Positions 46,422 to 64,000 of a stretch of DNA of 64,000 nucleotides are shown one piece after another. This stretch comes from Candidatus Omnitrophota bacterium (GTDB lineage: Bacteria > Omnitrophota > Gorgyraeia > Zapsychrales > Zapsychraceae). Numbering within the stretch: position 1 is the stretch's first letter; each line of letters begins with the position of its first letter. The position numbers were made by a program, and so were the translations under genes. Where the stretch lies: NCBI GenBank assembly GCA_029261055.1, contig JAJDCA010000044.1, positions 13,867 to 77,866 of the forward strand. The letters run 5' to 3'. The notes beneath the pieces were generated by a model. The model saw only the letters and a program-made list of their open reading frames with translations, made no database searches and was not told the origin of the DNA.

Positions 46422-46455
46422 AATACAAAACTAAAGACCGTAAAGCTCAGACTTT

Positions 46456-46490
46456 AGACCAAGGATTAATTTAAAATCTTTGGTCTTTTG
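46456..46490 (+). terminator. Candidate rho-independent terminator after the NapA-like gene
   Basis: AGACCAAGG - 13-nt loop - CTTTGGTCT gives a 9-bp stem with one G-U pair, followed by TTTT. Confidence 0.5.
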
Positions 46491-46583
46491 TCTATGCAAG
46501 AAAATCGCCTTTGTCGATAACCTGAAGGCGTATTTTTGGTGCCGATAGGAAAGTTTTATACTTTCCTATACGGGCAAAAAATT

Positions 46584-48598: not shown

Positions 48599-50121
48599 TT
48601 ATGTCGGGTTTACCAAAGTGGTTATTTTTTACAAGTATTGCGCTTGTGTTGATGATTTCATTTATCCTGGTAGAGTGGTTAAACCGATCCAATCGTAAGG
48701 CCAAGCCCTATCCTAAGTTTAACATTCTTTCCATTCCCGGCGTCAAGGCTTGTGTGAAGGCCCCATTTTTTAAATTCCTTTTTCAATTTCCTGTATTTTT
48801 AATTTTCTGCCTTATTATTTATGCCGGTATTTACGGACATGCCGTGATTAATATTGCCCCTGTATTGACTTGGACCATATGGTGGGCAGGACTCATTTTT
48901 CTAATTTTATTTTTTGGTAAGGCCTGGTGTTTTGTGTGTCCCTGGGATTTTGTCGCGACTCTTTTTCAATATTTAAAACCATTCGGTGTCAGCAAAAAAC
49001 CTTTTACATTGGGATATAAATGGCCAAGGTGGCTGAAGAATATTTATTTGGCTATTGGATTATTCGTTCTCTTAACATGGTTTGAGCTAGGATATCATGT
49101 GACGGCCTCACCACGCTTTACAGCAATATTAGCGATTGTCATTGTTTTTCTCTCCGTCATTCCGGCTTTAATTTTCGAAAAACGTTCTTTTTGTAAATAC
49201 GGGTGCCTCATTGGACGCATTTCAGGATTGTATGCCATGTTTTCACCTGTGGAAGTGCGCAGTGCAGACTTGGATGTATGTACAAAATGCAAGACAAAAG
49301 ATTGTTATACCGGAAATGATAAAGGTAATGCTTGCCCAACATCACTTGTGATTCCTCAAATCAAAGAAAATACCTATTGTATTTTATGTACAGAATGTGT
49401 CAAAAGTTGTCCGCACGATAATGTCGCCATTAATGTACGCCCCTTTGCAACGGATTTGAAAAATTTTACAAAAGTAAAAAGTGATGAAGCCATACTGGCC
49501 ATTATTCTTTTGGCCTTAACATCCTTTCATGGACTCACCATGACCCCACTGTGGGATTCACCGACAGGTAATTCAATAATCCATTCTATACGTTCCATCA
49601 CAGGATTTGGACCATTAGGGGCCTTTACATTAGGCATGTTTTGTGTGAATGCAGCGTTAGGTTTATTTTATTATCTAATCGCCTTAATTACACAACGATT
49701 TGTCGGAGAGCCGCAGGTTTCAACTAAAAAAGTTTTTTTGTATTACGCCTATTCTTTGCTACCCATTGCTTTGTTTTATCACTTAGCGCATAATGCCATG
49801 CATGTATTCATGGAGGGGCAAGTTGTCGTCCCCTTAATTTCGGATCCATTAGGGCAGGGTAATAATTTCTTTGGCACGGCGCAATGGTATTTGGCACCGC
49901 TGTTATCACACAGCAGCATTTGGTATCTGCAGGTGGGACTTGTCCTCATCGGACATATTTTTGGTATTATTATCGCGCATCATGTTTCACGAAAACTTTA
50001 TTCTGATCGCAGGGCCGCCATACGATCATTAGTTCCTATGCTCATCGGCATGATTTTTTACTCATTTCTTTCCTTATGGATTATGCATTTGGATATGAAT
50101 ATGCGGAGTAGTTTGATGTGA
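48595..50121 (+). CDS. Second NapH/MauN-family membrane polyferredoxin with extra C-terminal His-rich TM helices
   Basis: CFVCPWD and CKYGCLIG CxxCP-type motifs in TM context. Ferredoxin box CILCTECVKSCP. The C-terminal ~200 aa have 4 additional TM helices carrying conserved His (HLAHNAMH, GHIFGIIIAHH). Confidence 0.7.
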   Translation: MIMSGLPKWLFFTSIALVLMISFILVEWLNRSNRKAKPYPKFNILSIPGVKACVKAPFFKFLFQFPVFLIFCLIIYAGIYGHAVINIAPVLTWTIWWAGLIFLILFFGKAWCFVCPWDFVATLFQYLKPFGVSKKPFTLGYKWPRWLKNIYLAIGLFVLLTWFELGYHVTASPRFTAILAIVIVFLSVIPALIFEKRSFCKYGCLIGRISGLYAMFSPVEVRSADLDVCTKCKTKDCYTGNDKGNACPTSLVIPQIKENTYCILCTECVKSCPHDNVAINVRPFATDLKNFTKVKSDEAILAIILLALTSFHGLTMTPLWDSPTGNSIIHSIRSITGFGPLGAFTLGMFCVNAALGLFYYLIALITQRFVGEPQVSTKKVFLYYAYSLLPIALFYHLAHNAMHVFMEGQVVVPLISDPLGQGNNFFGTAQWYLAPLLSHSSIWYLQVGLVLIGHIFGIIIAHHVSRKLYSDRRAAIRSLVPMLIGMIFYSFLSLWIMHLDMNMRSSLM

Positions 50122-50705
50122 CCAAAGAAAACCTTTCCCGACGAGATTTTTTTAAAAAAGGATTAAAGTCGTTGGCTCAAGGCGCCAAGGAAACCGCCAC
50201 GATTTTATATTCATCGGAAGAACCCATTACGCCCAGCCGAACTCTTGTACGCCCTCCCGGAGCATTACCTGAAAAAGAATTTCTTGAAAAATGCACACGA
50301 TGTAATGAATGTGTGAAAGTCTGTCCTGAAGAATCCATTATGAAATTTGTCGGCGAAGAATCGCCCCTGCATTTAACACCCATGCTTTCCGTGCGTAAAT
50401 CACCGTGTGTGCTTTGTGAAGATTTTCCGTGTATCAAAGTATGCGAACCCGAAGCCTTAGTGATGCCGGCTGCACGTGAAGAAGTAAAAATGGGCATAGC
50501 GGTGATTAATGAAAAACTTTGTTATGCCTGGCAAGGGGGCCAAGATTGTGATTACTGTATTAAAGAATGCCCCATAGGAGAAAAAGCTATTTATTTTGAT
50601 GAAGTACGCCGGCCGCATGTATCGTCGGAACATTGTACTGGCTGCGGATGCTGTGAATATATTTGTCCCAGTCGTCAACCGGCGATTGTTGTCGGCACGC
50701 GTTAA
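50118..50705 (+). CDS. Second NapG/MauM-like periplasmic 4x[4Fe-4S] ferredoxin, TAT-exported
   Basis: SRRDFFKKGLKSLA TAT signal. Boxes CTRCNECVKVCP, CVLCEDFPCIKVC, CDYCIKECP, CTGCGCCEYICP. Confidence 0.75.
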   Translation: MTKENLSRRDFFKKGLKSLAQGAKETATILYSSEEPITPSRTLVRPPGALPEKEFLEKCTRCNECVKVCPEESIMKFVGEESPLHLTPMLSVRKSPCVLCEDFPCIKVCEPEALVMPAAREEVKMGIAVINEKLCYAWQGGQDCDYCIKECPIGEKAIYFDEVRRPHVSSEHCTGCGCCEYICPSRQPAIVVGTR

Positions 50706-50917: not shown

Positions 50918-52147
50918 ATGAAACGTTTAATAGCTTTACTGCTTTTAACATTAATTTTTTGCATAAGTGAAGGGTATGCAGCGGAGTCTCTTAAAGAGGT
51001 TTTTACAGAAGGAACGCCTTATATTGATATTCGATTGCGCTATGAACATGTCGAACAAGATGGTTTGATAAATGCAAATTCAAAAACAGCGCGAACACGT
51101 TTAGGTTTTAAATCCGATAAGTTTTATAATTTTGTTGGTGTTATTGAAGGAGAAGGTGTTTTTTATTTAGGAAATGATGATTATAACGACACGGTTAATG
51201 GTCGTACTGATCATGCCACGGTCGCTGATCCTGAGAATGTACAAGTCAATCAAGCTTATGGAGAATATACAGGAATTCCTGATACAGCGATCAAAGCAGG
51301 TCGGCAGGTTATTACGCTGGATGGCCACCGTTTTATTGGCCATGTTGGATGGCGACAAAATAATCAGGTCTTTGATGCCGCGATGATCACGAACTCGTCT
51401 ATTCCAGACACAACAGCAAAATATGGTTATATCTATAATGTAAACCGTATTTTTGGTGAACAATCCACGGGAGGCGACTGGGGTTCCAAAAGTCATTTCT
51501 ACCATATTGCCAACACAAGTCTACCCTTTGCTAAAGTTGCCGCGCATGGATACATTCTTGATTTTGGGAGTGATTCCGCCGCAAATTCTAACAAAACATT
51601 TGCTGTTAATTTTTCAGGAAAAAAAGAATTAAATGATGATTTTACTTTTAAATATTATGGCGAATATGCCCATCAAACTGATAATGCAGATAACACAACT
51701 GATTATGATGCGAGTTATTACCATATAGCTCCAGCCATCGCCTGGAAAAGTCTAACAGCAACAGTAGGTTTTGAAGTCTTAGGCAGTGATGATGGTAAAT
51801 TTGCTTTTAGGACACCTTTAGCGACTCTGCATAAATGGAATGGTTGGTCAGATAAATTTTTAACAACACCGGCTAACGGGCTTCAAGATTTTTATGTTGA
51901 TTTAACCTATAAAGTAAAAGATTTAGATGGAAATTTAGAATTTCTTAATGGATTGTTAGCTAAGGTTCAATACCATGATTTTGATGCAGATAATGGAGGT
52001 TTGGATCATGGAAAAGAATTCGGCGTATTTCTTAAAAAACCCATTAATAAGAACCTTGTTGTCAGCACAAAATATTCAAATTATATGGCTGATAAGACAT
52101 CAACTGATACACAAAAAATAACTTTTGATATTGGTATTAAATTTTAA
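50918..52147 (+). CDS. Outer-membrane beta-barrel protein (putative porin), paralogue of the ORF at 32838
   Basis: Signal peptide (LLLLTLIFCISEGYAAE). IRLRYEH motif near the N-terminus shared with ORF 32838. C-terminal ...GIKF aromatic terminus. Confidence 0.6.
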   Translation: MKRLIALLLLTLIFCISEGYAAESLKEVFTEGTPYIDIRLRYEHVEQDGLINANSKTARTRLGFKSDKFYNFVGVIEGEGVFYLGNDDYNDTVNGRTDHATVADPENVQVNQAYGEYTGIPDTAIKAGRQVITLDGHRFIGHVGWRQNNQVFDAAMITNSSIPDTTAKYGYIYNVNRIFGEQSTGGDWGSKSHFYHIANTSLPFAKVAAHGYILDFGSDSAANSNKTFAVNFSGKKELNDDFTFKYYGEYAHQTDNADNTTDYDASYYHIAPAIAWKSLTATVGFEVLGSDDGKFAFRTPLATLHKWNGWSDKFLTTPANGLQDFYVDLTYKVKDLDGNLEFLNGLLAKVQYHDFDADNGGLDHGKEFGVFLKKPINKNLVVSTKYSNYMADKTSTDTQKITFDIGIKF

Positions 52148-52238: not shown

Positions 52239-52487
52239 ATGTCTAAATTTGTTGTGCGAATACTATATTACGCTATTTTAAAAGAAAAACGGGGATTATC
52301 GGAAGAAAGCATTAACACTCAAGCAGTTACTGCGTTAGATCTTTATCAAGAACTCAAAGATCGACATTCGTTTGATTTATCCTCCAAATCATTAAAAGTA
52401 GCGATCAATGATGAATTTACCTCTTGGGATACGCGTTTACAGGCAGAGGATACTGTCATTTTCATCCCGCCGGTAGCTGGAGGCTAG
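52239..52487 (+). CDS. moaD: MoaD/ThiS-family sulfur-carrier protein (molybdopterin synthase small subunit)
   Basis: 82 aa ending in ...PPVAGG (C-terminal Gly-Gly), the hallmark of MoaD/ThiS. Confidence 0.65.
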   Translation: MSKFVVRILYYAILKEKRGLSEESINTQAVTALDLYQELKDRHSFDLSSKSLKVAINDEFTSWDTRLQAEDTVIFIPPVAGG

Positions 52488-52493
52488 CACTTC

Positions 52494-53159
52494 ATGTTCA
52501 ATCTCAAAAGTTTACTTAGGAAACCCTGTATGCGTAAATTTATTTTTATTTCTTTAATACTAGTTCTATCAACTTCTTTTGCACAGGCTCAAACCGAGCC
52601 AGGCTTATCTGTAGGGGCTGAAGCTCCTAATTTTGAAACAGTGAATTTTAAGGGCGATCCTATTCAACTGGATGATATTACCCAGAAAGGGCCGGTTGTT
52701 TTACTTTTTTATCGAGGGAGTTGGTGCCGATTTTGTAATCTTCAACTTCAAGCCTTTCAATCCCGTTTAACGGATTTTGAAAAACGAGGTGTTTCAATTA
52801 TTGCGATCAGCGTTGATAAACCCGAAAAATCAGCAGAAATGGTGCAAACTAAAGAATTTGGTTTTGAAGTTATAAGTAATCCTGAAGCAGATTTATTAGA
52901 ACAATATGCTGTCATGTTTCATGTTCCTGAAAAAACCGCCAAGATGTACAAAGAAAAATACCATATTGACCTCGTGGCTGCATCGGGACGCACGGATTAT
53001 TTGATTGCCGTTCCAGCTGTTTATGTCGTTGATCAAACGGGGACCATTGTTTTTGCCTATGCTAATGAAGACTACAAAGTCCGTAAGAGTCCTGATGAAA
53101 TTCTTGAAGTGCTAGATAATTTAAGTCTGGCTAACGCTTGGCAAAAGTTGCATGAATAA
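52494..53159 (+). CDS. Secreted thioredoxin-fold redoxin (AhpC/TSA - TlpA-like family)
   Basis: Signal peptide. The WCRFC CxxC motif follows a GPVVLLFYRGSW beta-strand typical of peroxiredoxin/TlpA proteins. Confidence 0.65.
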   Translation: MFNLKSLLRKPCMRKFIFISLILVLSTSFAQAQTEPGLSVGAEAPNFETVNFKGDPIQLDDITQKGPVVLLFYRGSWCRFCNLQLQAFQSRLTDFEKRGVSIIAISVDKPEKSAEMVQTKEFGFEVISNPEADLLEQYAVMFHVPEKTAKMYKEKYHIDLVAASGRTDYLIAVPAVYVVDQTGTIVFAYANEDYKVRKSPDEILEVLDNLSLANAWQKLHE

Positions 53160-55113
53160 AGAATTTGAGATCCTTTCCAATCTAAATCCCCAACAGTCCG
53201 AAGCTGTGCGTTATGCCGGTGGACCTTTGCTTGTTTTGGCTGGAGCCGGTTCCGGCAAAACACGGATTATTACTTCGCGTATTGTCCACATGATCAATCA
53301 AGGTGTTTCTCCGTCAGCCATTTTAGCCGTGACTTTTACGAATAAAGCGGCTAGTGAAATGAAATCACGTGTTTTTGAACATGTTCAATCCCCCGTGTCC
53401 ATCGGTACATTCCATTCGATTTGTCTAAGAATTTTGCGCAGAAATGCGGAGAGTATTTCACGAAAATCAGATTTTACGATTTACGACGACCAAGATCAAC
53501 TTGCTGTAATCAAAACATGCATGAAAGAATTAAACATAAATCCAAAGGAGGTTCATCCAAAACACATTCGTGAAGGCATCAGCCGCTGCAAAGATCAACT
53601 ACAATTTGCTGGGGATCTGGAAGACAAATACGTGGAATATGCAGATCAAATGCTGAATACAATTTATAAATTGTATGAAGAAAAACTCCAAAAATTTAAT
53701 GGATTAGATTTCGGTGACCTCATAGCTAAAACCGTCCGTTTATTTTCTCGCCGGTCAGATATTTTGGAATACTATCAAAAACGATTTCGGTATATTCTCA
53801 TTGATGAGTATCAAGATACAAATTATGCGCAGTATATGTGGATAAAACTATTGGCACAAAAGTACAATGATATCACGGTTGTAGGCGATCCTGATCAATC
53901 CATTTATGAATGGAGGGGAGCTGATGTCGAAAATATTATGAAATTTGAGTCAGAATTTAAAGGGACAAAAACAATCCGTCTCGAACAAAATTACCGTTCT
54001 ACGAATACTATCCTGAAGGCGGCGAATGCCGTTATTTCCAATAATTTCCACCGACAACCCAAAGAACTTTGGTCCGATAAAGGTGATGGCCATTTGGTTG
54101 AAGTGTGTGATCATGAAGATGAACGGGAAGAGGCTCAGTATTTTGTGCAACAAACTTTAAAATTAAGAAAACAAGGCCATGCCCTAAACGATATGGCATG
54201 TTTTTACCGGACGCATGCACAATCGCGCGTATTTGAAGAAGAGCTTATGCGACAGAATATTCCCTACAAAATCGTCGGCGGCGTCAAATTTTATGCCCGT
54301 CGTGAAATTAAAGACTTAATGGCTTACTTGCGCGTTGTTCATAACCCTGATGATGAGGTGAGTGTTTTAAGGATTATTAATATCCCAAAACGCGGCATTG
54401 GTAAAACTTCCCTGGAGAAGATTAGTAAAGTTAGTCGCGATCAAAACATATCCTTTTTTACAGCTATGACGTATTACATGGAAACAGCTAAAGTTTCAAC
54501 AAAATTAAGAAATGGACTGACGCAGTTTGTGCAAATGATTCAAAAATTCCGGCAAGCCACGTATAATATTAACTTAAGCCAGCTATTAACCATGATTATG
54601 GACGAAACAGGATACGTCACTGAACTAAAAAGTGAAAACACTGTAGAAGCCAAAGTCCGCATGGATAATATTCGTGAGTTTCGCGGCGCCATTGTAGAGT
54701 TTCAAGAGTCATTGGATGAAGGCATTACCGGACCCGAAGCCCTGCGCACCTATTTAGAATTGATCAGCCTGCAAACAAGTATTGATAATTGGGATACCAC
54801 CGAACAAGTCTTAACCTTGATGACCTTACACAGTGCCAAAGGATTAGAATTTCCGATCGTTTTCATGCCGGGTATGGAAGAAGGCCTCTTACCGCATATG
54901 AATGCCCTGCAAGCCTCATCCAAAGAAATAGAAGAAGAGCGTCGCTTATGTTATGTCGGTTTCACCCGAGCTCAGGAAAAATTATTCCTCAGCTACGCCA
55001 ATTACCGCACCTTATTTGGCTACGAACGCACCCAAACCCCCTCAAGATTCCTCAACGAAATCCCCGAACATCTCCTCACCTGTGCCATGAATGATTGTGG
55101 TATTGGGCTGTAA
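53152..55113 (+). CDS. uvrD: ATP-dependent DNA helicase, UvrD/PcrA/Rep family (SF1)
   Basis: N-terminal LNPQQSEAVRYAGGPLLVLAGAGSGKT (motifs Q and I) plus downstream SF1 helicase motifs. 653 aa. 8-bp overlap with the redoxin gene. Confidence 0.9.
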   Translation: MNKEFEILSNLNPQQSEAVRYAGGPLLVLAGAGSGKTRIITSRIVHMINQGVSPSAILAVTFTNKAASEMKSRVFEHVQSPVSIGTFHSICLRILRRNAESISRKSDFTIYDDQDQLAVIKTCMKELNINPKEVHPKHIREGISRCKDQLQFAGDLEDKYVEYADQMLNTIYKLYEEKLQKFNGLDFGDLIAKTVRLFSRRSDILEYYQKRFRYILIDEYQDTNYAQYMWIKLLAQKYNDITVVGDPDQSIYEWRGADVENIMKFESEFKGTKTIRLEQNYRSTNTILKAANAVISNNFHRQPKELWSDKGDGHLVEVCDHEDEREEAQYFVQQTLKLRKQGHALNDMACFYRTHAQSRVFEEELMRQNIPYKIVGGVKFYARREIKDLMAYLRVVHNPDDEVSVLRIINIPKRGIGKTSLEKISKVSRDQNISFFTAMTYYMETAKVSTKLRNGLTQFVQMIQKFRQATYNINLSQLLTMIMDETGYVTELKSENTVEAKVRMDNIREFRGAIVEFQESLDEGITGPEALRTYLELISLQTSIDNWDTTEQVLTLMTLHSAKGLEFPIVFMPGMEEGLLPHMNALQASSKEIEEERRLCYVGFTRAQEKLFLSYANYRTLFGYERTQTPSRFLNEIPEHLLTCAMNDCGIGL

Positions 55114-55204
55114 TAGTGCCCATACGGGTGAAGATTTAAGTTTGAATACGTATCACAATAAATATTGTTGAATGGATGAATTAATACCTATTTGAAACTC
55201 TATT

Positions 55205-56194
55205 TTATGAACTTTTTTTCAATCGATGCAGCGTAATTTCTGGGCGGCAGTTGAAGCGGACGCAGAGGCCGGATGTGCCGGCGCCGCGGGAGGTGTAGCC
55301 TTGCAGGGTTTTGTATTGCCATGGGCCGGCGATAAAAGAACTGAACGGTTTGTGCGGAGTATTTTTAATCATGGCGATGCCGCCGGGAAGGCAGACTTGT
55401 CCGCCGTGGGTATGTCCACACAAATATAGAGAAATACCGGCCGCCTCAGCGGATTTGATTAATTCCTGCGAATGCGCCAGAAGGATTTTAATGTCGCAGG
55501 TGTTGATGTCATTCATGGCTTTTAATAAATCTGCCGATTCATAAAAATGCTCGTCATCAACCCCGGCTAATCCAATCGTTGATTCATCTCGCTGAAGGGG
55601 GATAGCTTCATTCACCAGCATCTTCATGCCCGTCGATTCCAATTCCGGCACCATTTCAATAAAATCATGATTACCCAAAATACCGTATACAGGGGCTTTA
55701 AGTTTCAACGTATTCACCAGACGCTTAGTGTAAGCAAAAGATTCATGCGTTTGCCCGTACGTTAAAAAACGAAAGTCCCCCGTAATGACACAGACATCGT
55801 AATTTAATTGACTTACCTTATTGACTAATGCTCGGCCGCAATCAAACATACCATCGATATGCAAATCTGAGAGATGAAGAATAGTAAACCCGTCAAAGGC
55901 GGGAGGCAAGTGCGAGATCGCGACATCGTTTTCCACAATCTCAAAATTAATCGAATTTATAAAACCTCTTCGGAGAAATCGCGTTGTCTTAAGCAAAAAC
56001 TGAAGGAGCGGCACGAGAAAATGCATGTTTTCCCAGTACACATGGAACCCACCACGAAACTGAAAGGCCTGATGCTGTTGCTGTCGTTTTATACGCTTTT
56101 CTAAATGCGCAGCATCAAATCGTTCTTTTAATTGTTTTAAAATGTATTCATCCATAACCACTACAAGTATACCCTTCTTAAAAATAAAATCCAA
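55205..56194 (-). CDS. Calcineurin-like metallophosphoesterase
   Basis: GDxHID (HLSDLHIDG), GDF, GNHD and GHTH motifs in canonical order. Confidence 0.75.
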   Translation of the reverse strand: MDFIFKKGILVVVMDEYILKQLKERFDAAHLEKRIKRQQQHQAFQFRGGFHVYWENMHFLVPLLQFLLKTTRFLRRGFINSINFEIVENDVAISHLPPAFDGFTILHLSDLHIDGMFDCGRALVNKVSQLNYDVCVITGDFRFLTYGQTHESFAYTKRLVNTLKLKAPVYGILGNHDFIEMVPELESTGMKMLVNEAIPLQRDESTIGLAGVDDEHFYESADLLKAMNDINTCDIKILLAHSQELIKSAEAAGISLYLCGHTHGGQVCLPGGIAMIKNTPHKPFSSFIAGPWQYKTLQGYTSRGAGTSGLCVRFNCRPEITLHRLKKSS

Positions 56195-56368: not shown

Positions 56369-56938
56369 ATGAACTCATCAAAAAAATATTACTGGCCAAT
56401 TATCATCGTTTTTGTATTACTGGCATTGAGTTTTGTTCTTGATATGTGGGGAAAACCTATCAAAATTAAACAAAATCCAACCGTTGATTCAAAATTTTTA
56501 TCCCACGATACTGTACGTGATCCGTTAGTCCATGGCGCAAAAATTGAGCAAGCAGGATTTAAATACAATTGTAATGAGTGTCATGCTTATCTACAACCTC
56601 CCGAGACCCCTAAAAAATTAATCGGTGCGCATCAGCACATTGTTCTTAAACATGGTATCAATGATAATTGCTTCAAGTGTCATCATCGTACAAAACGGGA
56701 ATCATTAGTCGACATTTATGGCACAGAAGTGCCGTTTAAACAAAGTGCTCAATTGTGTCAAAAATGCCATGGACCAAAATACCGAGATTGGAAGGCTGGT
56801 GTCCATGGACGGCCAAGTGGCTATTGGGATAAGACTAAAGGGGAGACAATAAAACCGACCTGTGCCGCCTGTCACAATCCTCATGCACCAAAATTTCAAC
56901 CAATTGAGCCGGCACCAGCACCGGCAGGAAATCATTAA
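56369..56938 (+). CDS. Membrane-anchored tetrahaem c-type cytochrome (NrfB/NrfH/NapC-like electron-transfer subunit)
   Basis: N-terminal TM (YWPIIIVFVLLALSFVL). Four CxxCH motifs (CNECHA, CFKCHH, CQKCHG, CAACHN) within 189 aa. Confidence 0.8.
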   Translation: MNSSKKYYWPIIIVFVLLALSFVLDMWGKPIKIKQNPTVDSKFLSHDTVRDPLVHGAKIEQAGFKYNCNECHAYLQPPETPKKLIGAHQHIVLKHGINDNCFKCHHRTKRESLVDIYGTEVPFKQSAQLCQKCHGPKYRDWKAGVHGRPSGYWDKTKGETIKPTCAACHNPHAPKFQPIEPAPAPAGNH

Positions 56939-56942
56939 GAAT

Positions 56943-57893
56943 ATGAGCGAAGAAAATAAAGAAAACAATGACAATCCTTTAAATACTGGACCGATAAGCC
57001 GTAGAGATTTCCTTAAGCGCGGGGCTGTTTTAACCTCCGGTATTACAGCTATGGTGGCCGCCCTTTCGCCATTGAAACAGCTTGAAGATACATTTGATAT
57101 GGAGGAGTTTGTTCAGAAACATTACAAAGAATTAACCCCAAAAGAAATGGAAGGGGTTTTAAAACGCATTGCTAAAAAAGTCGAAAAGAAATATGGAACA
57201 ACCCCAAACGTCCAAGATATCAAACCACAAGAAGGGGTGGAATTTTCCTATGCCTTAAATCTTTCCCGTTGTATTGGATGCCGTCGTTGCGTGCATGCCT
57301 GTGTTGATGAAAACAATCAATCACGCAGTCCTGAAGTCCAGTACATCCGTGTCTTAAAAATGCCACAGGGAACCATGGATATGGAAAAGGGTGACCATCA
57401 TTACAATGTAAAGAAAGTACCCGAAGAAGGACATTTTTATATGCCGGTTCAATGTCATCAATGCGAAAAACCACCCTGTGTTAAAGTTTGTCCCGTTGAA
57501 GCGACTTGGCAAGAACCAGATGGCATCACGGTTATCGATTACGACTGGTGTATCGGTTGCCGGTATTGTGAAGCAGCCTGTCCTTATTGGGCCAGACGAT
57601 TTAATTTTTCCGAGCCTTCCATTCCTAAAGAAAAGATAAATCCAAACATGAATTATTTATCTAATCGTCCCCGATCTAAAGGGGTTATGGAAAAATGTCA
57701 TTTTTGTTTACAACGGACACGCGAAGGAAAACTTCCCGCGTGTTTAGAAGTTTGCCCAACAGGGTCGCGAACATTCGGTAATATTTTGGATCCTGAAAGT
57801 GAAATTTCCTATATATTGAAAAACAAACGTGTGTTTGTTTTAAAAGAAGAGGCAGGGACTCTGCCGAGATTTTTTTATTACTTTGATAAATAA
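56943..57893 (+). CDS. NrfC/HybA-like periplasmic 4x[4Fe-4S] subunit, TAT-exported
   Basis: TAT signal (ISRRDFLKRGAVLTSG). Boxes CIGCRRCVHAC, CHQCEKPPCVKVCP, CIGCRYCEAACP, CHFCLQR ... CLEVCPTG. I set the start at the ATG at 56943, after the stop of the cytochrome gene, rather than track ORF 56862. Confidence 0.85.
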   Translation: MSEENKENNDNPLNTGPISRRDFLKRGAVLTSGITAMVAALSPLKQLEDTFDMEEFVQKHYKELTPKEMEGVLKRIAKKVEKKYGTTPNVQDIKPQEGVEFSYALNLSRCIGCRRCVHACVDENNQSRSPEVQYIRVLKMPQGTMDMEKGDHHYNVKKVPEEGHFYMPVQCHQCEKPPCVKVCPVEATWQEPDGITVIDYDWCIGCRYCEAACPYWARRFNFSEPSIPKEKINPNMNYLSNRPRSKGVMEKCHFCLQRTREGKLPACLEVCPTGSRTFGNILDPESEISYILKNKRVFVLKEEAGTLPRFFYYFDK

Positions 57894-59125
57894 TGGCTAA
57901 AGCACTCCTAAATTATATCTCTTTTCTTTGCCGATGCGTTGCCATCAGCTTTAAAGGTTCAACTAGGTTTTATGCCTGGATGACATTCTTAACGGTTTTA
58001 ACGCTTATTGGATTGAATGCCTACTGTAAACAACTTGTGCATGGTTTGCATATGACGGGGATGACGGATCAAGTTTCTTGGGGCGCTTACATTGCCAATT
58101 TTACATATTTAGTCGGTATGGCTGCTGCAGCCGTCATGCTTGTGATTCCGGTATATTTATACAAAAATAAAGAGTTAGAAGACGTTGTCATTATTGGTGA
58201 ACTTTTTGCCATTGCCGCCATTATTATGGCTCTTTTATTTGTAGTGGTGGATTTAGGTCGTCCAGACCGATTTTGGCATTTAATTCCGTTTATTGGAAAA
58301 TTTAACTGGCCAATTTCCATGCTGAGTTGGGATGTTGTTGTTCTTAATATTTATCTTCTTTTAAATATGCATGTATGCGGTTATTTGCTTTACATGCGCT
58401 ACTTAAGACGTAAGCCGACCAAAGCATTCTATTTACCCTTTGTGTTTATTTCCATTATTTGGGCTGTTAGCATTCATACGGTGACCGCATTTTTATTTGC
58501 CGGATTAGGAGGGCGTCCATTTTGGAATACGGCTATTTTGGGACCACGCTTTATTGCGTCAGCCTTTGTTTCCGGTCCGGCTTTTATTGTCTTGTCGTTA
58601 CAGTTTATTCGACGTTTTAGCGATTACAAAATTGCAGACCAAGCTTTATTTACATTGCGTAAATTAATGCAAGTGGCTATGCTCATCAGCTTTTTTCTAT
58701 TCTTAAATGAATTTTTTGTTGAACTTTACACCGATTCTTTGCATGTAGCGTCCATGCAATATTTATTTTTTGGTTTGCATGGCCACAATGCATTAGTGCC
58801 CTGGATTTGGACAGCGATTGCATTTAATTTTACGGCTTTAATTTTATTTGTTTTACCAGCTTCGCGGAGTATTAAATGGCTTAACTTAGCTTGTATTTTA
58901 TCGGTAGTCGGCATATGGATTGAAAAAGGGATGGGGCTTATTATCCCGGGATTTATTCCAACACCTTTGGGAGAAATTGTGGAATACACGCCTTCATGGA
59001 ATGAAATATTGATTTGTGTCGGTATTTGGGCTTTTGGATTTTTGATTTATACAATTTTATTAAAAACATCGATTCCTGTATTACTAGGTAAGTTGCATAT
59101 TAAACATAAAGAGGCAAAGAAGTAA
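57893..59125 (+). CDS. NrfD-family polytopic membrane quinol dehydrogenase subunit
   Basis: 410 aa with ~10 TM helices. TAATG overlap with the FeS subunit, the same gene order as E. coli nrfC-nrfD. Confidence 0.8.
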   Translation: MAKALLNYISFLCRCVAISFKGSTRFYAWMTFLTVLTLIGLNAYCKQLVHGLHMTGMTDQVSWGAYIANFTYLVGMAAAAVMLVIPVYLYKNKELEDVVIIGELFAIAAIIMALLFVVVDLGRPDRFWHLIPFIGKFNWPISMLSWDVVVLNIYLLLNMHVCGYLLYMRYLRRKPTKAFYLPFVFISIIWAVSIHTVTAFLFAGLGGRPFWNTAILGPRFIASAFVSGPAFIVLSLQFIRRFSDYKIADQALFTLRKLMQVAMLISFFLFLNEFFVELYTDSLHVASMQYLFFGLHGHNALVPWIWTAIAFNFTALILFVLPASRSIKWLNLACILSVVGIWIEKGMGLIIPGFIPTPLGEIVEYTPSWNEILICVGIWAFGFLIYTILLKTSIPVLLGKLHIKHKEAKK

Positions 59126-59216
59126 GAGGCAAGAGGCAGAGAAAAAAACTATAAAATAAAAAAATTCTTTAATTTTTTTATCTTTGCTTCTTATCTCTTT
59201 GATTTTTACTTCTCTT
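59108..59216. repeat. Purine-arm / pyrimidine-arm inverted-repeat element, copy A (overlaps the 3' end of the NrfD-like gene and the intergenic region)
   Basis: AAAGAGGCAAAGAAGTAAGAGGCAAGAGGCAGAGAAAAAAA, then an AT-rich spacer, then TCTTTGCTTCTTATCTCTTTGATTTTTACTTCTCTT. Related to copies B and C. Confidence 0.55.
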
Positions 59217-59232
59217 AAAAAAGGAGGATGGC

Positions 59233-60678
59233 ATGAAGCAAAAAATTTTAACATTTATTATCGGAACGGTTTTTGTTCTATGCGTTTCACAAGCCCAAGC
59301 CGGCATGTTCGGGCCAAGTGAAAAAACTGCTCAGACAAAAAAATGTCTGGACTGTCACAAAACAGAAACCCCGGTTATTACCCAACAATGGGGTGCCAGC
59401 AAACATTATCGAGGTAATGTTGGATGTTTTGAATGTCACAACGCAGAAAAAAATGACAAGGATGCATTCAAGCATTATGGAGAGTATATTTCAACAATTG
59501 TTTCTCCTAAAGATTGTGCCCGTTGTCATCAAAAGGAAGTTTCTGAGTTTGAAGATTCTCACCATTCTAAGGGCGCACGAATTCTTGGTTCCTTAGACAA
59601 TCGTTTGGCCGAGGTGGTCGAAGGAAATAATCAGTTTGTGACCCCTGGTTTTCCTGAAGGGAATTCATCGGCTGCAGTTAATGGCTGTTGGCAGTGTCAT
59701 GGGTCAGAAGTAAAAGTACTTTCTGGAGGAAAACTAGATCCTGCAACATGGCCAAACTCCGGTATTGGACGGATTAACCCGGATGGTTCTGAAGGTTCTT
59801 GCTCAGCCTGCCATTCTCGTCATCGATTTTCTGTTGAACAAGCCCGTAATCCAGAAAATTGTGGTAAATGCCATATGGGACCGGATCATCCACAAATTGA
59901 AATTTATGAAGAGTCAAAGCACGGCATTGCATTTCATGCCAATAAAGACAAAATGAATATGGCCAATGAAAAATGGGTTCTAGGAGAAGATTACAATGCT
60001 GCTCCGACGTGTGCCACATGCCATATGAGTGCAACGCCTGATCAAGACGTCACACACGATGTAGGGTTACGTATCAGCTGGAATAACCGCCCAATTACAT
60101 CAATCCGTCCTGAAGTATCTGATGCTAAAATGGGATTGCCTGGAAAAGATATTTTATGGGAAGAACGCCGGGCTAATATGAAAAATGTATGTTTAAATTG
60201 TCACAATCAATCTTATGTAGATAATTTTTACACTCAATATGACAGCTTAATTGAACTCTACAATGAAAAATTTGCTAAACCTGGGAAAGCGTTAATGGCT
60301 TTAGCTAAACCTTTGCTTAAACCAGTTGTGTTTGGAAACAAACTTGATTTTATCTGGTTTGAAATTTGGCACCATGAAGGCCGTCGAGCTCGTCACGGGG
60401 CTTCAATGATGGGCCCAGATTATACACATTGGCATGGAACTTATGAAGTTGCCAAAAACTTCTACACTGAATTAATTCCAGAACTAGAAGAGCTTGCCGA
60501 AAAATACCTTCATTCTAACATTGAAGAAAAAAAGGCTCAGGCTAAAAAATTACAATCAAAAATTAATGAAGTTCTAAACTCTGATGATCATAAATGGTAT
60601 ATTAATAAAATGGATCCTGCAGAGATGCAAAAACGGAAAGCTGCACAGAAAGAGTTTAAGGAAAGATATTCAAAATAA
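59233..60678 (+). CDS. Periplasmic octahaem c-type cytochrome (HAO/epsilon-Hao / octahaem nitrite- or tetrathionate-reductase superfamily; subfamily not resolved)
   Basis: Signal peptide. Eight CxxCH motifs (CLDCHK, CFECHN, CARCHQ, CWQCHG, CSACHS, CGKCHM, CATCHM, CLNCHN) in 481 aa. Confidence 0.85.
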   Translation: MKQKILTFIIGTVFVLCVSQAQAGMFGPSEKTAQTKKCLDCHKTETPVITQQWGASKHYRGNVGCFECHNAEKNDKDAFKHYGEYISTIVSPKDCARCHQKEVSEFEDSHHSKGARILGSLDNRLAEVVEGNNQFVTPGFPEGNSSAAVNGCWQCHGSEVKVLSGGKLDPATWPNSGIGRINPDGSEGSCSACHSRHRFSVEQARNPENCGKCHMGPDHPQIEIYEESKHGIAFHANKDKMNMANEKWVLGEDYNAAPTCATCHMSATPDQDVTHDVGLRISWNNRPITSIRPEVSDAKMGLPGKDILWEERRANMKNVCLNCHNQSYVDNFYTQYDSLIELYNEKFAKPGKALMALAKPLLKPVVFGNKLDFIWFEIWHHEGRRARHGASMMGPDYTHWHGTYEVAKNFYTELIPELEELAEKYLHSNIEEKKAQAKKLQSKINEVLNSDDHKWYINKMDPAEMQKRKAAQKEFKERYSK

Positions 60679-60848
60679 GAGAATCAGAGAGGTAAAGAGG
60701 TAAGAAGCAGAGATAAAAAACAGAGAATAACTTACTCTAAAAAAAGCAGTAAAATATAGAAACAAGCCTCAGAGAAATAATAAGGTCAATTAATTTAATT
60801 TTGTTTTTTCTCTGCACCTTTGTTTCTTACACCTCTGCTTCTTTAAAA
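60677..60848. repeat. Purine-arm / pyrimidine-arm inverted-repeat element, copy B (entire octahaem-napD intergenic region)
   Basis: Purine arm AGAGGTAAAGAGGTAAGAAGCAGAGATAAAAAAC. Downstream pyrimidine arm TTTTGTTTTTTCTCTGCACCTTTGTTTCTTACACCTCTGCTTCTTT is its imperfect reverse complement. Confidence 0.6.
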
Positions 60849-60852
60849 AACA

Positions 60853-61125
60853 ATGCCAATATCCAGTCTAATCATAAAAACACAAAAACAAGAAATCCAA
60901 AAGGTGGCCGATGAATTGCGCCGACTTAAAGGAACGATTGTTTCTGATGTACTAGATGAAAATATTGTGGTGGTAACCGAAACTGAAGATCGTAAAGAAG
61001 ATAAATCGCTTTGGGACCAAATGGAAAAAATCTCTGGCGTTATGCAAGTCGATTTGATTTACCATAACTTTGAAGATGCTGAAGAGAATCAAGAGGCAAA
61101 GATACAAGAAGCAGAGATAAAATAA
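60853..61125 (+). CDS. napD: NapD-like TAT-signal-binding chaperone for NapA
   Basis: 90 aa. Lies immediately upstream of napA. Small ferredoxin-like alpha/beta pattern (IVSDVLDENIVVVTE ... GVMQVDLIYHNFED). Assigned by position and size, so confidence is moderate. Confidence 0.55.
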   Translation: MPISSLIIKTQKQEIQKVADELRRLKGTIVSDVLDENIVVVTETEDRKEDKSLWDQMEKISGVMQVDLIYHNFEDAEENQEAKIQEAEIK

Positions 61126-61180
61126 TATTATTTTTTTGTTTTTTCTCTGCTTCTTGCTTCTATACAACTTGCTTCTTGTT
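61081..61180. repeat. Purine-arm / pyrimidine-arm inverted-repeat element, copy C (3' end of napD to the napA leader)
   Basis: CAAGAAGCAGAG (61104-61115) and CTCTGCTTCTTG form a perfect 12-bp inverted repeat around an AT loop. TTTTGTTTTTTCTCTGC is shared verbatim with copy B. Confidence 0.6.
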
Positions 61181-61196: not shown

Positions 61197-63545
61197 ATGA
61201 CTAATTTTACCCGTCGAGAATTTCTTAAAATGTCCGCACAGATGGCCGCATTGGCGGCATTAGGGTTAAGTACTCTAAACTCTACTGTTGCCGAGGCTGA
61301 AGAAGTGGCTGATGGTTTAACCTGGCAAAAAGCACCTTGCCGTTTCTGTGGAACAGGATGTGGTGTCATGGTAGGTGTTAAAAAAGGGCGTGTTGTAGCT
61401 GTTCAAGGTGATCGCGAAAATCCTGTTAACCGCGGTTTATTATGTGCCAAAGGATATCATGTTGGTGCGGCCTTGTATGGAGCCGATCGTTTAAAACGGC
61501 CTATGCTGCGCAAAGGTGGAAAACTCCAACCGGTTTCATGGGATCTAGCCATTAACACAATAGCTGATAAAATCGTCGAAGACCCCACACGCTTTGCCAT
61601 TTATGGTTCCGGTCAATGGACCATTCCCGAAGGCTTTACCGCCATGAAATTTCTTAAAGGTGGGTTAGGAAGTAATCACATTGATCCTAATGCCCGACTG
61701 TGTATGGCCAGTGCCGTGGTTGGATTCATCAAGACCTTTGGCGTAGATGAACCTTCCGGATGTTACGATGATTTAGATAGTTGTGATACGGTCATCTGTT
61801 GGGGGAATAACTGGGCGGAAATGCATCCGATTTTATATTCCCGTTTTATCGACCGCAAAAATAAATTTGAGAAAGTTACTATGGTCGATATGGCCACACG
61901 CCGAACACGCACAACGGAAGCCGCAGACCATTACATTGAATTCCGCCCCCAATCTGATCTCGCTATTGCCAACGGTATTTGTTATCTGCTTCTTAAAAAT
62001 AAAACTTACGATGCAAAATTTGTAGCCGAACGGGCACGATTTAAATCGAACGATGGAAAAGATATTACTTTAGATCAATACTTCGAATTTCTGAAAGATT
62101 ACACCCCGGAAAAAGTGTCCAAAATATCGAATGTGCCTGTCGGGCAGATTAAAATGTTGGCGGATATTTTTGCTGATCCCAAACGCAAAGTTGTATCTTT
62201 GTGGTGCATGGGCATGAATCAGCACACACGGGGAACGTGGATTAATAATCTTGTTTATAATGTCCATCTTCTAGCTGGAAAAATCGGAAAACCAGGCAGC
62301 ACGCCATTTTCCTTAACGGGTCAACCCAGTGCCTGTGGCACATGTCGAGAAGTCGGAACATTGGCACATGCCTTACCCGGTGGCCGTGTGGTTAAAAATG
62401 AAGGACACCGCAAAGAGGCCGAAGAATTATGGAATCTCAAGCCTGGCACGATCAATCCAAAACCCGGATTTCATACGGTTAAAATGTTTAAGGCCTTGGC
62501 CTCAGGGGACATTACCGGTATGTGGGTTCAAGTGACTAATCCAGGCCAGTCCATGCCGAATTTAAATTTGACCCTTCAAAAGGCAAATGATCGTTTTTTT
62601 GTGGTCTCAGAGATCTATCCAACGGCTACTACAAAATATGCCGATGTTGTTTTACCGTCATCTACCTGGGTTGAAAAAAATGGTCTTTTTGGCAATACAG
62701 AGCGTCGTACACAGCAATGGTTCAAGATGATTGAACCTCCAGGTGAAGCGCGGGATGATGTCTGGCAGATGTTAGCCGTAGCCCGTAAGTTGTACGAAAA
62801 AGGCTTTGAAGGCATGAAAAATAAAGACGGTGAATTTTTATTTACCATGCGTGATGAAAAGGGTAAAGAAATTCACCATTGGAAATGGGATGTTTACAAA
62901 AAACATAATATCGATAAAATCCTTTTTGAAGAATATCGCCCTTTTACAACTAAGAAACATAAAGATATTGCCCCGTACGATGTATATGTTGAAAATCGTG
63001 GTTTACGATGGCCCGTGGTTCAAAATGGCAACGGTCAATGGAAAGAAACCAAACGACGCTTTGTGGAAGGCGAAGATCCTTTTGTAGAAAAAGGGGACGG
63101 CATTTCTTTTTACATGGCCAAGGCTGGCGACAAAAAAGCTATTATTTGGGCACGCCCGTATGAAGCCCCACCCGAGGTGCCCGATGAACAATATCCATTT
63201 TGGTTGTGTACAGGACGCGTCCTTGAACATTGGCATACCGGTACAATGACCGGCCGTGTTAAAGAATTAAAAAATGCCATGCCGCATGCCTTTGTGGATA
63301 TTCATCCAGCGGATGCCGAAAATCTCGGTGTCTACAATGGAGACCGTGTACGCATTAAATCCCGACGAGGATCCATAACACTTCCGGTGTCAGTCAACGG
63401 TCGTTCCGTGCCACAAAAAGGTTTAGTTTTTGTTCCATTTTTCGATGAAGCCAAATTGATTAACCAAGTGACCTTAGAAGCCTATTGTCCTTTGTCTAAA
63501 GAGCCAGATTATAAAAAATGTGCGGTTTTAATTGAGAAAGTTTAA
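61197..63545 (+). CDS. napA: Periplasmic nitrate reductase catalytic subunit
   Basis: TAT signal (TRREFLKMSAQMAALAALG). CRFCGTGCGV ... LLCAKG FeS box. HIDPNARLCMASAVVGF Mo-Cys region. TGRVLEHWHTG C-terminal motif. All are classic NapA signatures. Confidence 0.95.
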   Translation: MTNFTRREFLKMSAQMAALAALGLSTLNSTVAEAEEVADGLTWQKAPCRFCGTGCGVMVGVKKGRVVAVQGDRENPVNRGLLCAKGYHVGAALYGADRLKRPMLRKGGKLQPVSWDLAINTIADKIVEDPTRFAIYGSGQWTIPEGFTAMKFLKGGLGSNHIDPNARLCMASAVVGFIKTFGVDEPSGCYDDLDSCDTVICWGNNWAEMHPILYSRFIDRKNKFEKVTMVDMATRRTRTTEAADHYIEFRPQSDLAIANGICYLLLKNKTYDAKFVAERARFKSNDGKDITLDQYFEFLKDYTPEKVSKISNVPVGQIKMLADIFADPKRKVVSLWCMGMNQHTRGTWINNLVYNVHLLAGKIGKPGSTPFSLTGQPSACGTCREVGTLAHALPGGRVVKNEGHRKEAEELWNLKPGTINPKPGFHTVKMFKALASGDITGMWVQVTNPGQSMPNLNLTLQKANDRFFVVSEIYPTATTKYADVVLPSSTWVEKNGLFGNTERRTQQWFKMIEPPGEARDDVWQMLAVARKLYEKGFEGMKNKDGEFLFTMRDEKGKEIHHWKWDVYKKHNIDKILFEEYRPFTTKKHKDIAPYDVYVENRGLRWPVVQNGNGQWKETKRRFVEGEDPFVEKGDGISFYMAKAGDKKAIIWARPYEAPPEVPDEQYPFWLCTGRVLEHWHTGTMTGRVKELKNAMPHAFVDIHPADAENLGVYNGDRVRIKSRRGSITLPVSVNGRSVPQKGLVFVPFFDEAKLINQVTLEAYCPLSKEPDYKKCAVLIEKV

Positions 63546-63548
63546 CAT

Positions 63549-64000
63549 ATGAAAAAATATAAAAACGTATTTCTCACCCTATTCTTACTTGCGGCTGCAA
63601 TAGTTGTATTAGTAAAACCATCTGTCGTAACGGCTAAAAAACAATTAACGCCGGTTAAAGAACTTTCGAAACGGGAAGACCTACGTGCGTTTTACACGGC
63701 CCCACCCGTCATTCCTCATGAAGTAACAGATAACCGGGGGAATAAAGAATGTTTGTATTGCCATAACGAGGTTCTTAAAATTGAAAATCGTTTTTCTGTT
63801 AAAACACCTCATCCGCAATTTACAAATTGCCAACAATGTCATGTGCAAAGGCTGAAGCCGGAGACACCTGTTGCTTCTACATGGCAAGGCTTAAAAGAAC
63901 CAAAACAAGGGACAAGGGCTCATGAAGTTGCACCACCAACGATTCCACACCGTATTTTTTTAAGAGAAAATTGCAACACATGCCACGGCGCAAAAAATCC
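63549..64000 (+). CDS. napB: NapB-like periplasmic c-type cytochrome, 5' partial (runs off the window end)
   Basis: I translated it by hand. Signal peptide MKKYKNVFLTLFLLAAAIVV. Two NapB-type APP(V/T)IPH ... CxxCH units (APPVIPHEV..CLYCHN and APPTIPHRIF..CNTCHG) plus CQQCHV. Starts 3 bp after the napA stop. Confidence 0.7.
   Translation, partial: MKKYKNVFLTLFLLAAAIVVLVKPSVVTAKKQLTPVKELSKREDLRAFYTAPPVIPHEVTDNRGNKECLYCHNEVLKIENRFSVKTPHPQFTNCQQCHVQRLKPETPVASTWQGLKEPKQGTRAHEVAPPTIPHRIFLRENCNTCHGAKN

Follow-up and report, generated by a model that had tools for sequence, protein, structure and literature searches.

The window examined here is a stretch of 64,000 nt (64 kb) of contig JAJDCA010000044.1 from a Candidatus Omnitrophota bacterium. 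It contains four consecutive genes that, on balance, probably encode a periplasm-facing respiratory complex in which electrons from quinol are used for nitrite reduction. The genes specify, in order, a membrane-anchored tetrahaem cytochrome c (designated cyt4), a protein with four [4Fe-4S] cluster motifs and a signal for twin-arginine translocation (TAT) (the FeS subunit), an NrfD-family integral membrane subunit, and an octahaem cytochrome c of the hydroxylamine oxidoreductase (HAO) family (Table 1). A preliminary description had proposed these four open reading frames (ORFs) in this order and had placed them directly upstream of napDAB; all four were recovered on the plus strand, and napD, napA, and a NapB-like gene were found downstream. 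The four-gene order is not due to chance, because 63 of the 68 loci from other species that could be judged share it. The ATG at position 56943, five bases past the cyt4 stop codon, is a more plausible start for the FeS gene than the overlapping GTG at 56862, and the start of the NrfD-family gene overlaps the FeS stop codon by 1 nt (TAATG). The octahaem gene begins after a 107-nt gap and has a strong AGGAGG ribosome-binding site.

The octahaem cytochrome resembles reductive members of the HAO family

The octahaem protein has a signal peptide ending in AQA and eight CxxCH motifs, all of which were invariant across 12 relatives; CxxCK, CxxxCH, and CxxxxCH motifs were absent. It matched the Pfam family PF13447 at 88 bits (cut-off 21.9). 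Its best match among solved structures was IhOCC of Ignicoccus hospitalis (PDB 4qo5, E = 1.8e-54), which rose to E = 1.7e-63 with a family profile, and further PDB matches were obtained with NeHAO from Nitrosomonas (4e-21), the reductive HAO Kustc0458 from Kuenenia (3e-19), HDH, and HOX. The match to ONR was marginal (E = 0.007, residues 31–113), and the PDB sequence search returned no OTR or MccA chain matching at E ≤ 0.01. The active-site haem is Lys-ligated in OTR, ONR has a CxxCK motif, and MccA has a long CX15CH-type motif. The preliminary description had called the protein an eight-haem enzyme of the superfamily of HAO, epsilon-Hao, and octahaem nitrite or tetrathionate reductases, and this assignment stands: the eight haem motifs are genuine, and nothing among the PDB chains pointed to orthology with MccA or OTR. 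By these comparisons, the octahaem belongs to the HAO family and is without an OTR, MccA, or ONR signature. An exact sequence look-up found no record of the protein, and an AlphaFold2 (AF2) monomer model of it (alignment A1) was poor, with a predicted local distance difference test (pLDDT) score of 49.9.

The active site was compared with that of NeHAO by profile–profile alignment (hhalign, octahaem family profile against NeHAO 235–503). NeHAO numbering was checked on the chain of PDB 4fas, and the NeHAO C-terminus was rebuilt from PDB alignments. In this alignment, the invariant pair D218-H219 (GPDH) lay opposite the catalytic Asp267-His268 pair above haem 4 of NeHAO (GVDH), and the invariant R286 in the WNNRP segment occupied the position of NeHAO Tyr334. 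An Arg in the distal pocket recalls NrfA. HAO-family proteins form homotrimeric rings of 24 haems, and in oxidative HAOs of the P460 type (NeHAO, KsHOX, and HDH) a cross-linking Tyr, Tyr467 in NeHAO, reaches haem 4 of the neighbouring subunit. In the column of NeHAO Tyr467, local and global MAFFT alignments of the C-terminal regions placed W400, which is invariant in the family and is replaced by Phe in IhOCC. An alternative register drawn by eye places H399 there, which would fit a published statement that the key site of reductive HAOs is occupied by His (PMC12758564). The preliminary description had named the cross-linking Tyr of HAO as a residue to look for, and in both registers the aligned position holds a residue other than Tyr. 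Because the Asp-His pair is kept, an Arg stands at the Tyr334 position, and the cross-linking Tyr is absent, the octahaem should work reductively and reads as a putative reductive HAO. In vitro, HAOs without the cross-link act as reductases, as shown for Kustc0458 and for four epsilon-Hao enzymes (PMC8042395, citing Haase 2017).

The same residues bear on the possibility that the system runs in reverse, with the octahaem oxidising hydroxylamine, hydrazine, or another donor and the module reducing quinone, in the manner of a hydroxylamine–ubiquinone redox module (HURM). NrfD-type modules are bidirectional, as illustrated by Qrc, which reduces menaquinone (PMC8076601), and the octahaem does belong to the HAO family. 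However, HAOs without the cross-link show negligible oxidation (PMC8042395), no Tyr aligns with the cross-link position, the locus adjoins a nitrate reductase, and no amo or hzs genes were found among the scanned window ORFs. We consider operation in this direction very improbable.

The donor module is of the DsrOP/ActBC type and contains a distinctive tetrahaem cytochrome

The FeS subunit has the twin-arginine motif SRRDFLKRG and 16 Cys residues arranged in four ferredoxin-type cluster motifs, with a match to Pfam Fer4_11. Its best NCBIfam model was DsrO (172.6 bits; the cut-off of 200 was not reached), followed by QrcC, TtrB, and ArrB, and its score against NrfC (TIGR03149) was 110.5 bits, with a cut-off of 377.6. 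In the PDB it was closest to the C-terminal FeS region of ActB, a subunit of alternative complex III (ACIII), and then to PsrB and ArrB. The NrfD-family subunit scored 420 bits against DsrP, exceeding the cut-off of 350, and only 30.1 bits against NrfD itself (TIGR03148, cut-off 347.6), 54 bits against QrcD, and 24 bits against TtrC; its best solved relative was ActC of ACIII (6f0k_C, E = 6e-15). The homologues in five other loci, from Planctomycetota, Verrucomicrobiota, Brocadiaceae, Bdellovibrionales, and a vent metagenome, behaved in the same way, with NrfD-like subunits at 393–424 bits against the DsrP model, all above the cut-off, and FeS subunits at 172–194 bits against DsrO (cut-off 200). 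The anatomy proposed in the preliminary description, that of the NrfD-type modules of complex iron–sulfur molybdoenzymes (CISM), was borne out, with an NrfD-family subunit, a TAT-exported four-cluster protein, and a membrane cytochrome c encoded together. Its likeness to E. coli nrfB-nrfC-nrfD holds for the architecture but not for descent, as the NrfD and NrfC scores fall far below their cut-offs and the tetrahaem is unlike NrfB. By sequence, the module is thus of the DsrOP/ActBC type and not an orthologue of E. coli NrfBCD. Annotation based on NCBIfam would probably mislabel its NrfD-like subunit as DsrP, a subunit of sulfate reduction, because the NrfD-like subunits pass the DsrP cut-off in loci without Dsr genes nearby.

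The third component, cyt4, has an N-terminal hydrophobic helix (residues 10–28), which is predicted to remain uncleaved as a transmembrane (TM) helix, and exactly four CxxCH motifs. Homologues hold the same position in 62 loci, and all 62 have four haem motifs. Four further His residues (H88, H95, H146, and H172) are invariant, and for this reason all four haems appear to be bis-His ligated. The Pfam matches of cyt4 were to generic multihaem families only, and it scored 18.8 bits against NapC/NirT (PF03264, cut-off 24.1) and 16 bits against NrfH (TIGR03153, cut-off 134). No NrfB, DsrJ, or ActA model or structure matched in Pfam, NCBIfam, or the PDB; neither phmmer nor a 37-sequence profile found a specific PDB relative; and a Foldseek search of the PDB with an AF2 model of cyt4 (21-sequence alignment, pLDDT 68.6) gave no match at E < 5. 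An NrfH-like identity was rejected on account of the four invariant distal His residues and the sub-threshold NapC/NirT-family score, and a DsrJ identity on account of the haem number (four, not three) and the lack of a DsrJ model match. Judged by these searches, cyt4 constitutes a family of its own and falls in no described family. Its homologues also have a proline-rich C-terminal tail (P-x-P-x-P; residues 171–189 in the window protein) with a near-invariant final His (H189), and this tail could be a docking arm or could donate a ligand to a partner.

The affinity of the module to DsrOP raises the alternative that the complex is a reductase of sulfur compounds (sulfite, polysulfide, tetrathionate, or thiosulfate). 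In its favour are the DsrP score of the NrfD-like subunit, which exceeds the cut-off, and the position of DsrO as the nearest match of the FeS subunit. Multihaem enzymes are promiscuous between nitrogen and sulfur substrates (PMC13510729, discussion), and Slobodkina et al. kept a sulfur alternative open (PMC5276818). This alternative is nevertheless decidedly improbable. No DsrM-, DsrK-, or DsrAB-type Pfam match was found among the scanned window ORFs of at least 120 aa, and no sulfur-related gene was present among the recurrent neighbour families of the related loci, which comprised NapA, NapB-like, NapD, and porin families. At the PDB level the octahaem matches neither OTR nor MccA, and it has neither CxxCK nor the extended MccA motif; cyt4 has no DsrJ match in the NCBIfam scan and seemingly four bis-His haems; and the carriers are mostly Planctomycetota and Verrucomicrobiota.

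The module and the octahaem gene are widespread and nearly always adjacent

The octahaem subfamily was found in at least 597 species genomes with a locus, in many phyla, in a scan of one genome per GTDB species. The best 120 of at least 8,000 candidates in a word-indexed search were 61–100% identical to the window octahaem, and identity inside the subfamily was 64–82%. HAO-like proteins as a whole comprised 1,912 representatives at 50% identity (E ≤ 0.001), the nearest of which to the window octahaem (P0140), in an exhaustive search of representatives, was 68% identical. For synteny, ORFs were called in 80 related loci (numbered with the prefix L) and searched with the window proteins. Twelve loci were too short to judge; among the remaining 68, the cyt4-FeS-NrfD module lay directly upstream of the octahaem gene in 57 and directly downstream in 6. 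The preliminary description had regarded the pairing as uncommon, and these counts contradict it. Carriers included Planctomycetota and Verrucomicrobiota, which made up most of them, and also Hydrogenedentota, Myxococcota, Bdellovibrionota, Brocadiaceae, and Scalindua.

The closest relatives of both the octahaem and cyt4 by search were from Candidatus Omnitrophota. The closest cyt4 relative (58% identity) was encoded in a vent metagenome locus (L083) with the contiguous order ThiS/MoaD, cyt4, FeS, NrfD, octahaem, NapA, NapB. In that locus (830–1795) a ThiS/MoaD-like gene directly precedes cyt4, whereas in the window the two are separated by genes for a peroxiredoxin, a UvrD helicase, and a divergently oriented metallophosphoesterase (52239–56194); the difference looks like a local rearrangement or insertion. 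In the Brocadiaceae locus L030, about 2.8 kb of unrelated ORFs (4638–7421) split the FeS gene from the NrfD gene, and the rest of the unit is intact. A contig of Omnitrophica WOR_2 (L085, 80–3747) has a cyt4-FeS-NrfD module preceded by an additional gene for a 186-aa multihaem cytochrome. No octahaem gene follows downstream; the contig begins just upstream of the module, and an octahaem gene further upstream is possible.

More distant HAO-like lineages (40–50% identical) had other surroundings. A NapC/NirT-type (PF03264) tetrahaem gene lay immediately upstream in L086 (Desulfobacterales) and L091, whose HAO-like proteins are 40–45% identical to the window octahaem; L088 lay near napD and napA with neither type of partner, L089 was an orphan, and L090 was a tandem pair. 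Because distant lineages have a NapC/NirT partner and the window subfamily has the NrfD module, HAO-type reductases, like NrfA, appear on gene context to be paired with a quinol dehydrogenase of the NrfH type or of the NrfD type.

The unit is recurrently linked to periplasmic nitrate reductase

The window NapA has an N-terminal TAT signal with the motif RREFLK. Proteins taken as bona fide NapA, which scored 900 bits or more against the window NapA, were encoded within 9 kb in 11 of the 80 loci, and weaker NapA-like proteins in 6 more (17/80). A NapB-like protein was also encoded in 10 of the 11 true-NapA loci, with four haems where checked, and NapC, NapG, and NapH were absent from the flanks of all 11. 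The cyt4/FeS/NrfD module may therefore also feed NapAB via the tetrahaem NapB-like protein. The window NapB-like protein has two APPxIPH motifs and three CxxCH motifs before the window ends. More generally, these clusters encode, in place of the usual dihaem protein, a doubled NapB partner that carries four haems and two APPxIPH motifs (L003, 5280–5855; L026, 361–1071; and the cluster 8 representative).

Two further families recur beside these loci. An Alginate_exp-type porin family was found beside 21 of 82 HAO-like octahaem loci (for example, L023, 11097–12554); its representative matched Pfam Alginate_exp at 284 bits, and the window member had a weak NCBIfam match to Opr porins. The same family occurs beside the distant, NapC-partnered L091 (2123–3346). 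This porin may be an entry pore for nitrate or nitrite. The other family is a conserved acidic protein of about 150–160 aa whose gene immediately follows that of the octahaem in 28 loci. The two members scanned had no Pfam match, the window has no copy, and the protein may function in assembly or maturation. L085 has an unannotated ORF of comparable length just after its NrfD gene (3835–4293).

Inverted repeats and transcription of the unit

Three related purine-rich/pyrimidine-rich inverted repeats occupy the three intercistronic gaps of the cluster (59126–59197, approximately 60700–60830, and 61085–61176). Their core motif, TTTTTTCTCTGC, occurs six times in the 64 kb, against 1.0 expected, and five of the six copies lie inside 59136–61150. 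The first hairpin is missing in L083, where the NrfD and octahaem genes overlap. A terminator scan found no intrinsic-terminator-like site in the cluster gaps, and the promoter and terminator scans performed no better than on shuffled sequence. Co-transcription of the four genes is plausible from this arrangement.

Proposed electron path, product, and rival functions

The observed gene content, cofactor motifs, export signals, family membership, conserved synteny, and recurrent Nap linkage can be drawn together in one scheme. The NrfD-family subunit, which would itself be without cofactors, would oxidise (mena)quinol and pass the electrons to the four [4Fe-4S] clusters of the TAT-exported subunit; they would then move through the four putatively bis-His haems of the membrane-anchored cyt4 to the octahaem, in which a five-coordinate haem 4 would be the site of nitrite reduction. 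NapAB would make nitrite from nitrate in the same compartment as the octahaem. The product would most likely be ammonium, because epsilon-Hao enzymes, and reportedly also IhOCC, reduce nitrite and hydroxylamine, and because of the analogy with NrfABCD. The four-gene unit would then be equivalent to NrfABCD in function but assembled from other components. The order of carriers is proposed by analogy, because the same order, from NrfD-type subunit through FeS subunit to cytochrome, is found in the ACIII structure and in the accepted NrfABCD scheme (PMC8076601). In this scheme we infer the electron path, the quinol donor, the nitrite substrate, the ammonium product, and any proton translocation.

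The preliminary description had proposed a route from nitrate through nitrite to a reduced nitrogen compound. The recurrent Nap link (NapA or NapA-like proteins within 9 kb in 17/80 loci) fits this route, but a single product cannot be read from the fold, because the reductive HAO Kustc0458 yields NO. The same complex and path could thus make NO in a one-electron reduction, or free hydroxylamine, feeding denitrification or anammox hydrazine synthesis. With a mild donor, Kustc0458, which has no cross-link, converts nitrite to NO (PMC8042395); the four-gene unit is present in Brocadiaceae and Scalindua genomes (L030 and L054), and some such anammox organisms have neither NirS nor NirK (PMC7814187); and for Nautilia and Deferribacter a route that releases hydroxylamine has been put forward (PMC6896113). 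However, the octahaem is far closer to IhOCC (E = 1.8e-54) than to Kustc0458 (3e-19), its pocket differs from that of Kustc0458 at the WNNRP segment, and no nor or hcp gene recurs among the neighbours. A 20-centre electron wire also exceeds what a one-electron reduction needs, although this is a weak argument. An NO or hydroxylamine product is therefore a realistic possibility, if an unlikely one.

Another explanation is detoxification, in which the complex would scavenge periplasmic NO, hydroxylamine, or nitrite released by NapAB or by neighbouring organisms and would not form a main respiratory branch. HAO-family reductases also reduce NH2OH and NO (PMC8042395), approximately 80% of the loci have no adjacent nap genes, and the family occurs in many aerobic or facultative bacteria of the Planctomycetota–Verrucomicrobiota–Chlamydiota (PVC) group. 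A dedicated NrfD-type quinol dehydrogenase is, however, typical of respiratory branches (PMC8076601), and the unit is tightly coupled to NapDAB in the window and its closest relatives. We regard a purely protective function as improbable.

Several observations weigh against the respiratory nitrite reductase that we favour. The nearest counterparts of its NrfD-like and FeS subunits, DsrP and DsrO, belong to sulfur metabolism, and the reductive HAO Kustc0458 yields NO and not ammonium with a mild donor (PMC8042395). The Tyr467 assignment comes from a weak C-terminal alignment: beyond haem 8, neither HMMER nor hhalign extends. Two Tyr residues, Y397 and Y404, are close to the aligned position, Y404 being common to the window octahaem and IhOCC. 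Approximately 80% of the loci have no nap gene within 9 kb, and the hairpin and U-rich tract in the 107-nt gap could partly uncouple transcription of the octahaem gene. Five octahaem genes, two of them from Omnitrophota, are solitary, the module being absent from at least 3.5 kb of sequence to either side, and the module in L085 has no octahaem gene beside it; the partnership of octahaem and module is therefore not obligatory.

Relation to known systems

A matching locus has already been described. In Thermosulfurimonas dismutans (TDIS_0606–0609) and Dissulfuribacter thermophilus (DBT_2326–2329), genes for a Hao homologue, an NrfD protein, a 4Fe-4S protein, and a transmembrane cytochrome c lie beside nap and were proposed, hypothetically, to perform the nitrite-reducing step of an NrfA-independent dissimilatory nitrate reduction to ammonium (DNRA), with sulfur compounds as alternative substrates (PMC5276818). 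Judged by the gene descriptions, these loci have the same four component types as the window, and the order agrees if one of the two is read in the opposite direction. Their hosts are thermophilic and Desulfobacterota-related, whereas the closest matches of the window are from Omnitrophota. In Campylobacterota, Deferribacterota, and Caldithrix, nap and hao are also known to lie together, there with other electron donors (PMC5317091, PMC6896113). The novelty claimed in the preliminary description was thus overstated: the locus type was noted in 2017 and is biochemically uncharacterised, and the window is a further instance of a type that is widespread, not rare. A 2021 review of NrfD-type complexes lists no HAO-linked member (PMC8076601), and a full-text search of the literature on hydroxylamine oxidoreductase with NrfD returned nothing more specific than the locus of PMC5276818. 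Two other reports were set aside: MccSep (PMC13510729), to which weak NCBIfam matches to a "UshA-like selenoprotein" had drawn attention, is an unrelated pentahaem enzyme, and the study of Thiovulum (PMC9938260) treats NrfD and epsilon-Hao in separate places and has no bearing on the locus. What is new here is the breadth of the system, its near-obligatory synteny, the DsrOP-type identity of its module, and the dichotomy between NrfH-type and NrfD-type partners within the HAO family.

On the side of the terminal enzyme, epsilon-Hao (HaoA) is, like the window octahaem, a HAO-family protein without the cross-link and is often adjacent to nap; reduction of nitrite and hydroxylamine in vitro has been shown for epsilon-Hao (Haase 2017, cited in PMC8042395). 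Its partner is of the NapC/NrfH type (HaoC/CycB) or is a Rieske/cytochrome b pair (PMC5317091, PMC6896113), whereas the window has the three-subunit cyt4/FeS/NrfD module. IhOCC shares eight haems and a C-terminal helical region with the window octahaem but is distant compared with the identity found inside the subfamily, and the anammox protein HAO5A has been reported to cluster with Ignicoccus (PMC12758564).

On the donor side, E. coli NrfABCD has the same logic and gene order as the window unit and feeds a periplasmic multihaem nitrite reductase. Its terminal enzyme is, however, the pentahaem NrfA with a CxxCK haem, its NrfB is a soluble pentahaem protein and not a membrane-anchored tetrahaem one, and its NrfD is predicted to have 8 helices (PMC8076601), against approximately 10 in the window subunit. 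The DsrJOP half of DsrMKJOP is closest to the window module by sequence and shares the order cytochrome c, FeS protein, NrfD-type protein and a 10-helix membrane subunit; it differs in that DsrJ is a trihaem protein and DsrM and DsrK stand alongside, whereas the partners of the tetrahaem cyt4 module are an octahaem and Nap, and the scanned ORFs include no DsrM, DsrK, or DsrAB. ACIII provides the best solved templates (ActC and the C-terminal FeS part of ActB) and likewise has a membrane-anchored multihaem cytochrome on its FeS subunit. ActB chains, however, are 930–1,040 aa long, compared with 316 aa for the window FeS subunit, no ActD, ActE, or ActF lies adjacent to the window unit, and cyt4 shows no detectable similarity to ActA.

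Other features of the window

By its gene content, the 64-kb window appears to be a respiratory neighbourhood (Table 1). It includes a second CISM-type gene set, in a TtrBCA-like order, after which comes a Porin_5 outer-membrane protein. Further downstream, a divergent NapA-like molybdoenzyme (888 aa; 350 bits against the NapA model, cut-off 904) is flanked by two NapG-like and two NapH-like genes, and the region may represent a second, unusual periplasmic molybdoenzyme system.

Table 1. Positions of the four-gene unit, its neighbours, and other features of the window, with homologues in other loci (L numbers; positions refer to the locus)
Feature	Position	Strand	Remarks
cyt4, membrane-anchored tetrahaem cytochrome c	56369–56938	+	189 aa; 4 CxxCH, one N-terminal TM helix
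TAT-exported 4x[4Fe-4S] protein (FeS subunit; DsrO/ActB-C-terminal/PsrB type)	56943–57893	+	316 aa; 16 Cys, RRDFLK
NrfD-family integral membrane subunit	57893–59125	+	410 aa; PF03916 150 bits, ~10 TM helices
Intercistronic purine/pyrimidine-rich hairpin, then U-rich tract	59126–59197	+	RNA fold −27.2 kcal/mol, z = −3.2
Octahaem cytochrome c, HAO family, putative reductive type, Sec-exported, periplasmic	59233–60678	+	481 aa; 8 CxxCH, PF13447
napD (NapA chaperone)	60853–61125	+	PF03927 56 bits
napA, periplasmic nitrate reductase catalytic subunit	61197–63545	+	NCBIfam NapA PRK13532 940 bits (cut-off 904)
NapB-like multihaem cytochrome	63549–64000	+	PF03892 NapB 34.5 bits; gene runs off window end
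Outer-membrane porin-like protein	50918–52147	+	hidden Markov model of 21-locus neighbour family, E = 1.2e-105
Succinate dehydrogenase/fumarate reductase	13.5–16.9 kb		
Haem biosynthesis and system II cytochrome c maturation	19–25.2 kb		
TtrBCA-ordered second CISM-type set	27716–34088		Fer4_11 FeS (248 aa), NrfD-family (376 aa), molybdopterin oxidoreductase (853 aa), NarJ/TorD-type chaperone (206 aa)
Molybdenum cofactor (Moco) riboswitch, Rfam RF01055	34820–34943		44.5 bits; immediately upstream of moaA
moaA	34935–35894		
mobB-mobA fusion	35900–37033		
MoeA, in Moco-related region	34.8–37 kb		
Rieske protein, cytochrome b, 858-aa multi-domain cytochrome c, then NapA-like molybdoenzyme region	38956–50705		
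NrfD-like homologues above DsrP cut-off	L001 6736–8004; L010 7721–8947; L030 7421–8737; L069 12353–13603; L083 2773–4023		
Acidic ~160-aa family members	L041 10446–10928; L001 10518–10961; L002 9543–10010		and ~25 other loci

Implications

Read jointly, the DsrOP-type module and the HAO-type octahaem could constitute the principal quinol:nitrite reductase that operates without NrfA in PVC-group bacteria, Omnitrophota, Hydrogenedentota, and predatory or myxobacterial lineages. Such a complex might translocate protons via its 10-helix subunit and might serve NapAB and the nitrite reductase as a single quinol dehydrogenase, and in Brocadia-type anammox bacteria without NirS or NirK it could be the missing quinol-linked nitrite reductase that makes NO or hydroxylamine. 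We offer this extended proposal tentatively and think it rather doubtful as a whole.

The more modest four-gene nitrite reductase overturns nothing; it would extend a known design from NrfA to the HAO family, namely terminal multihaem reductases placed on interchangeable NrfH-type or NrfD-type quinol dehydrogenases. The design will not surprise specialists, and the system is abundant, misannotated, and directly testable. Its membrane subunit is an annotation trap, passing the DsrP cut-off where the DNA examined offers no Dsr context. In some metagenomes, "hydroxylamine oxidoreductase" genes without the cross-linking Tyr rank with the most abundant genes of the nitrogen cycle (PMC8940962), and such genes are usually counted as nitrification or left unexplained. 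A subfamily present in at least 597 species genomes, nearly always accompanied by a putative quinol-oxidising module and often by Nap, would provide a testable route of nitrate and nitrite respiration in organisms without NrfA.

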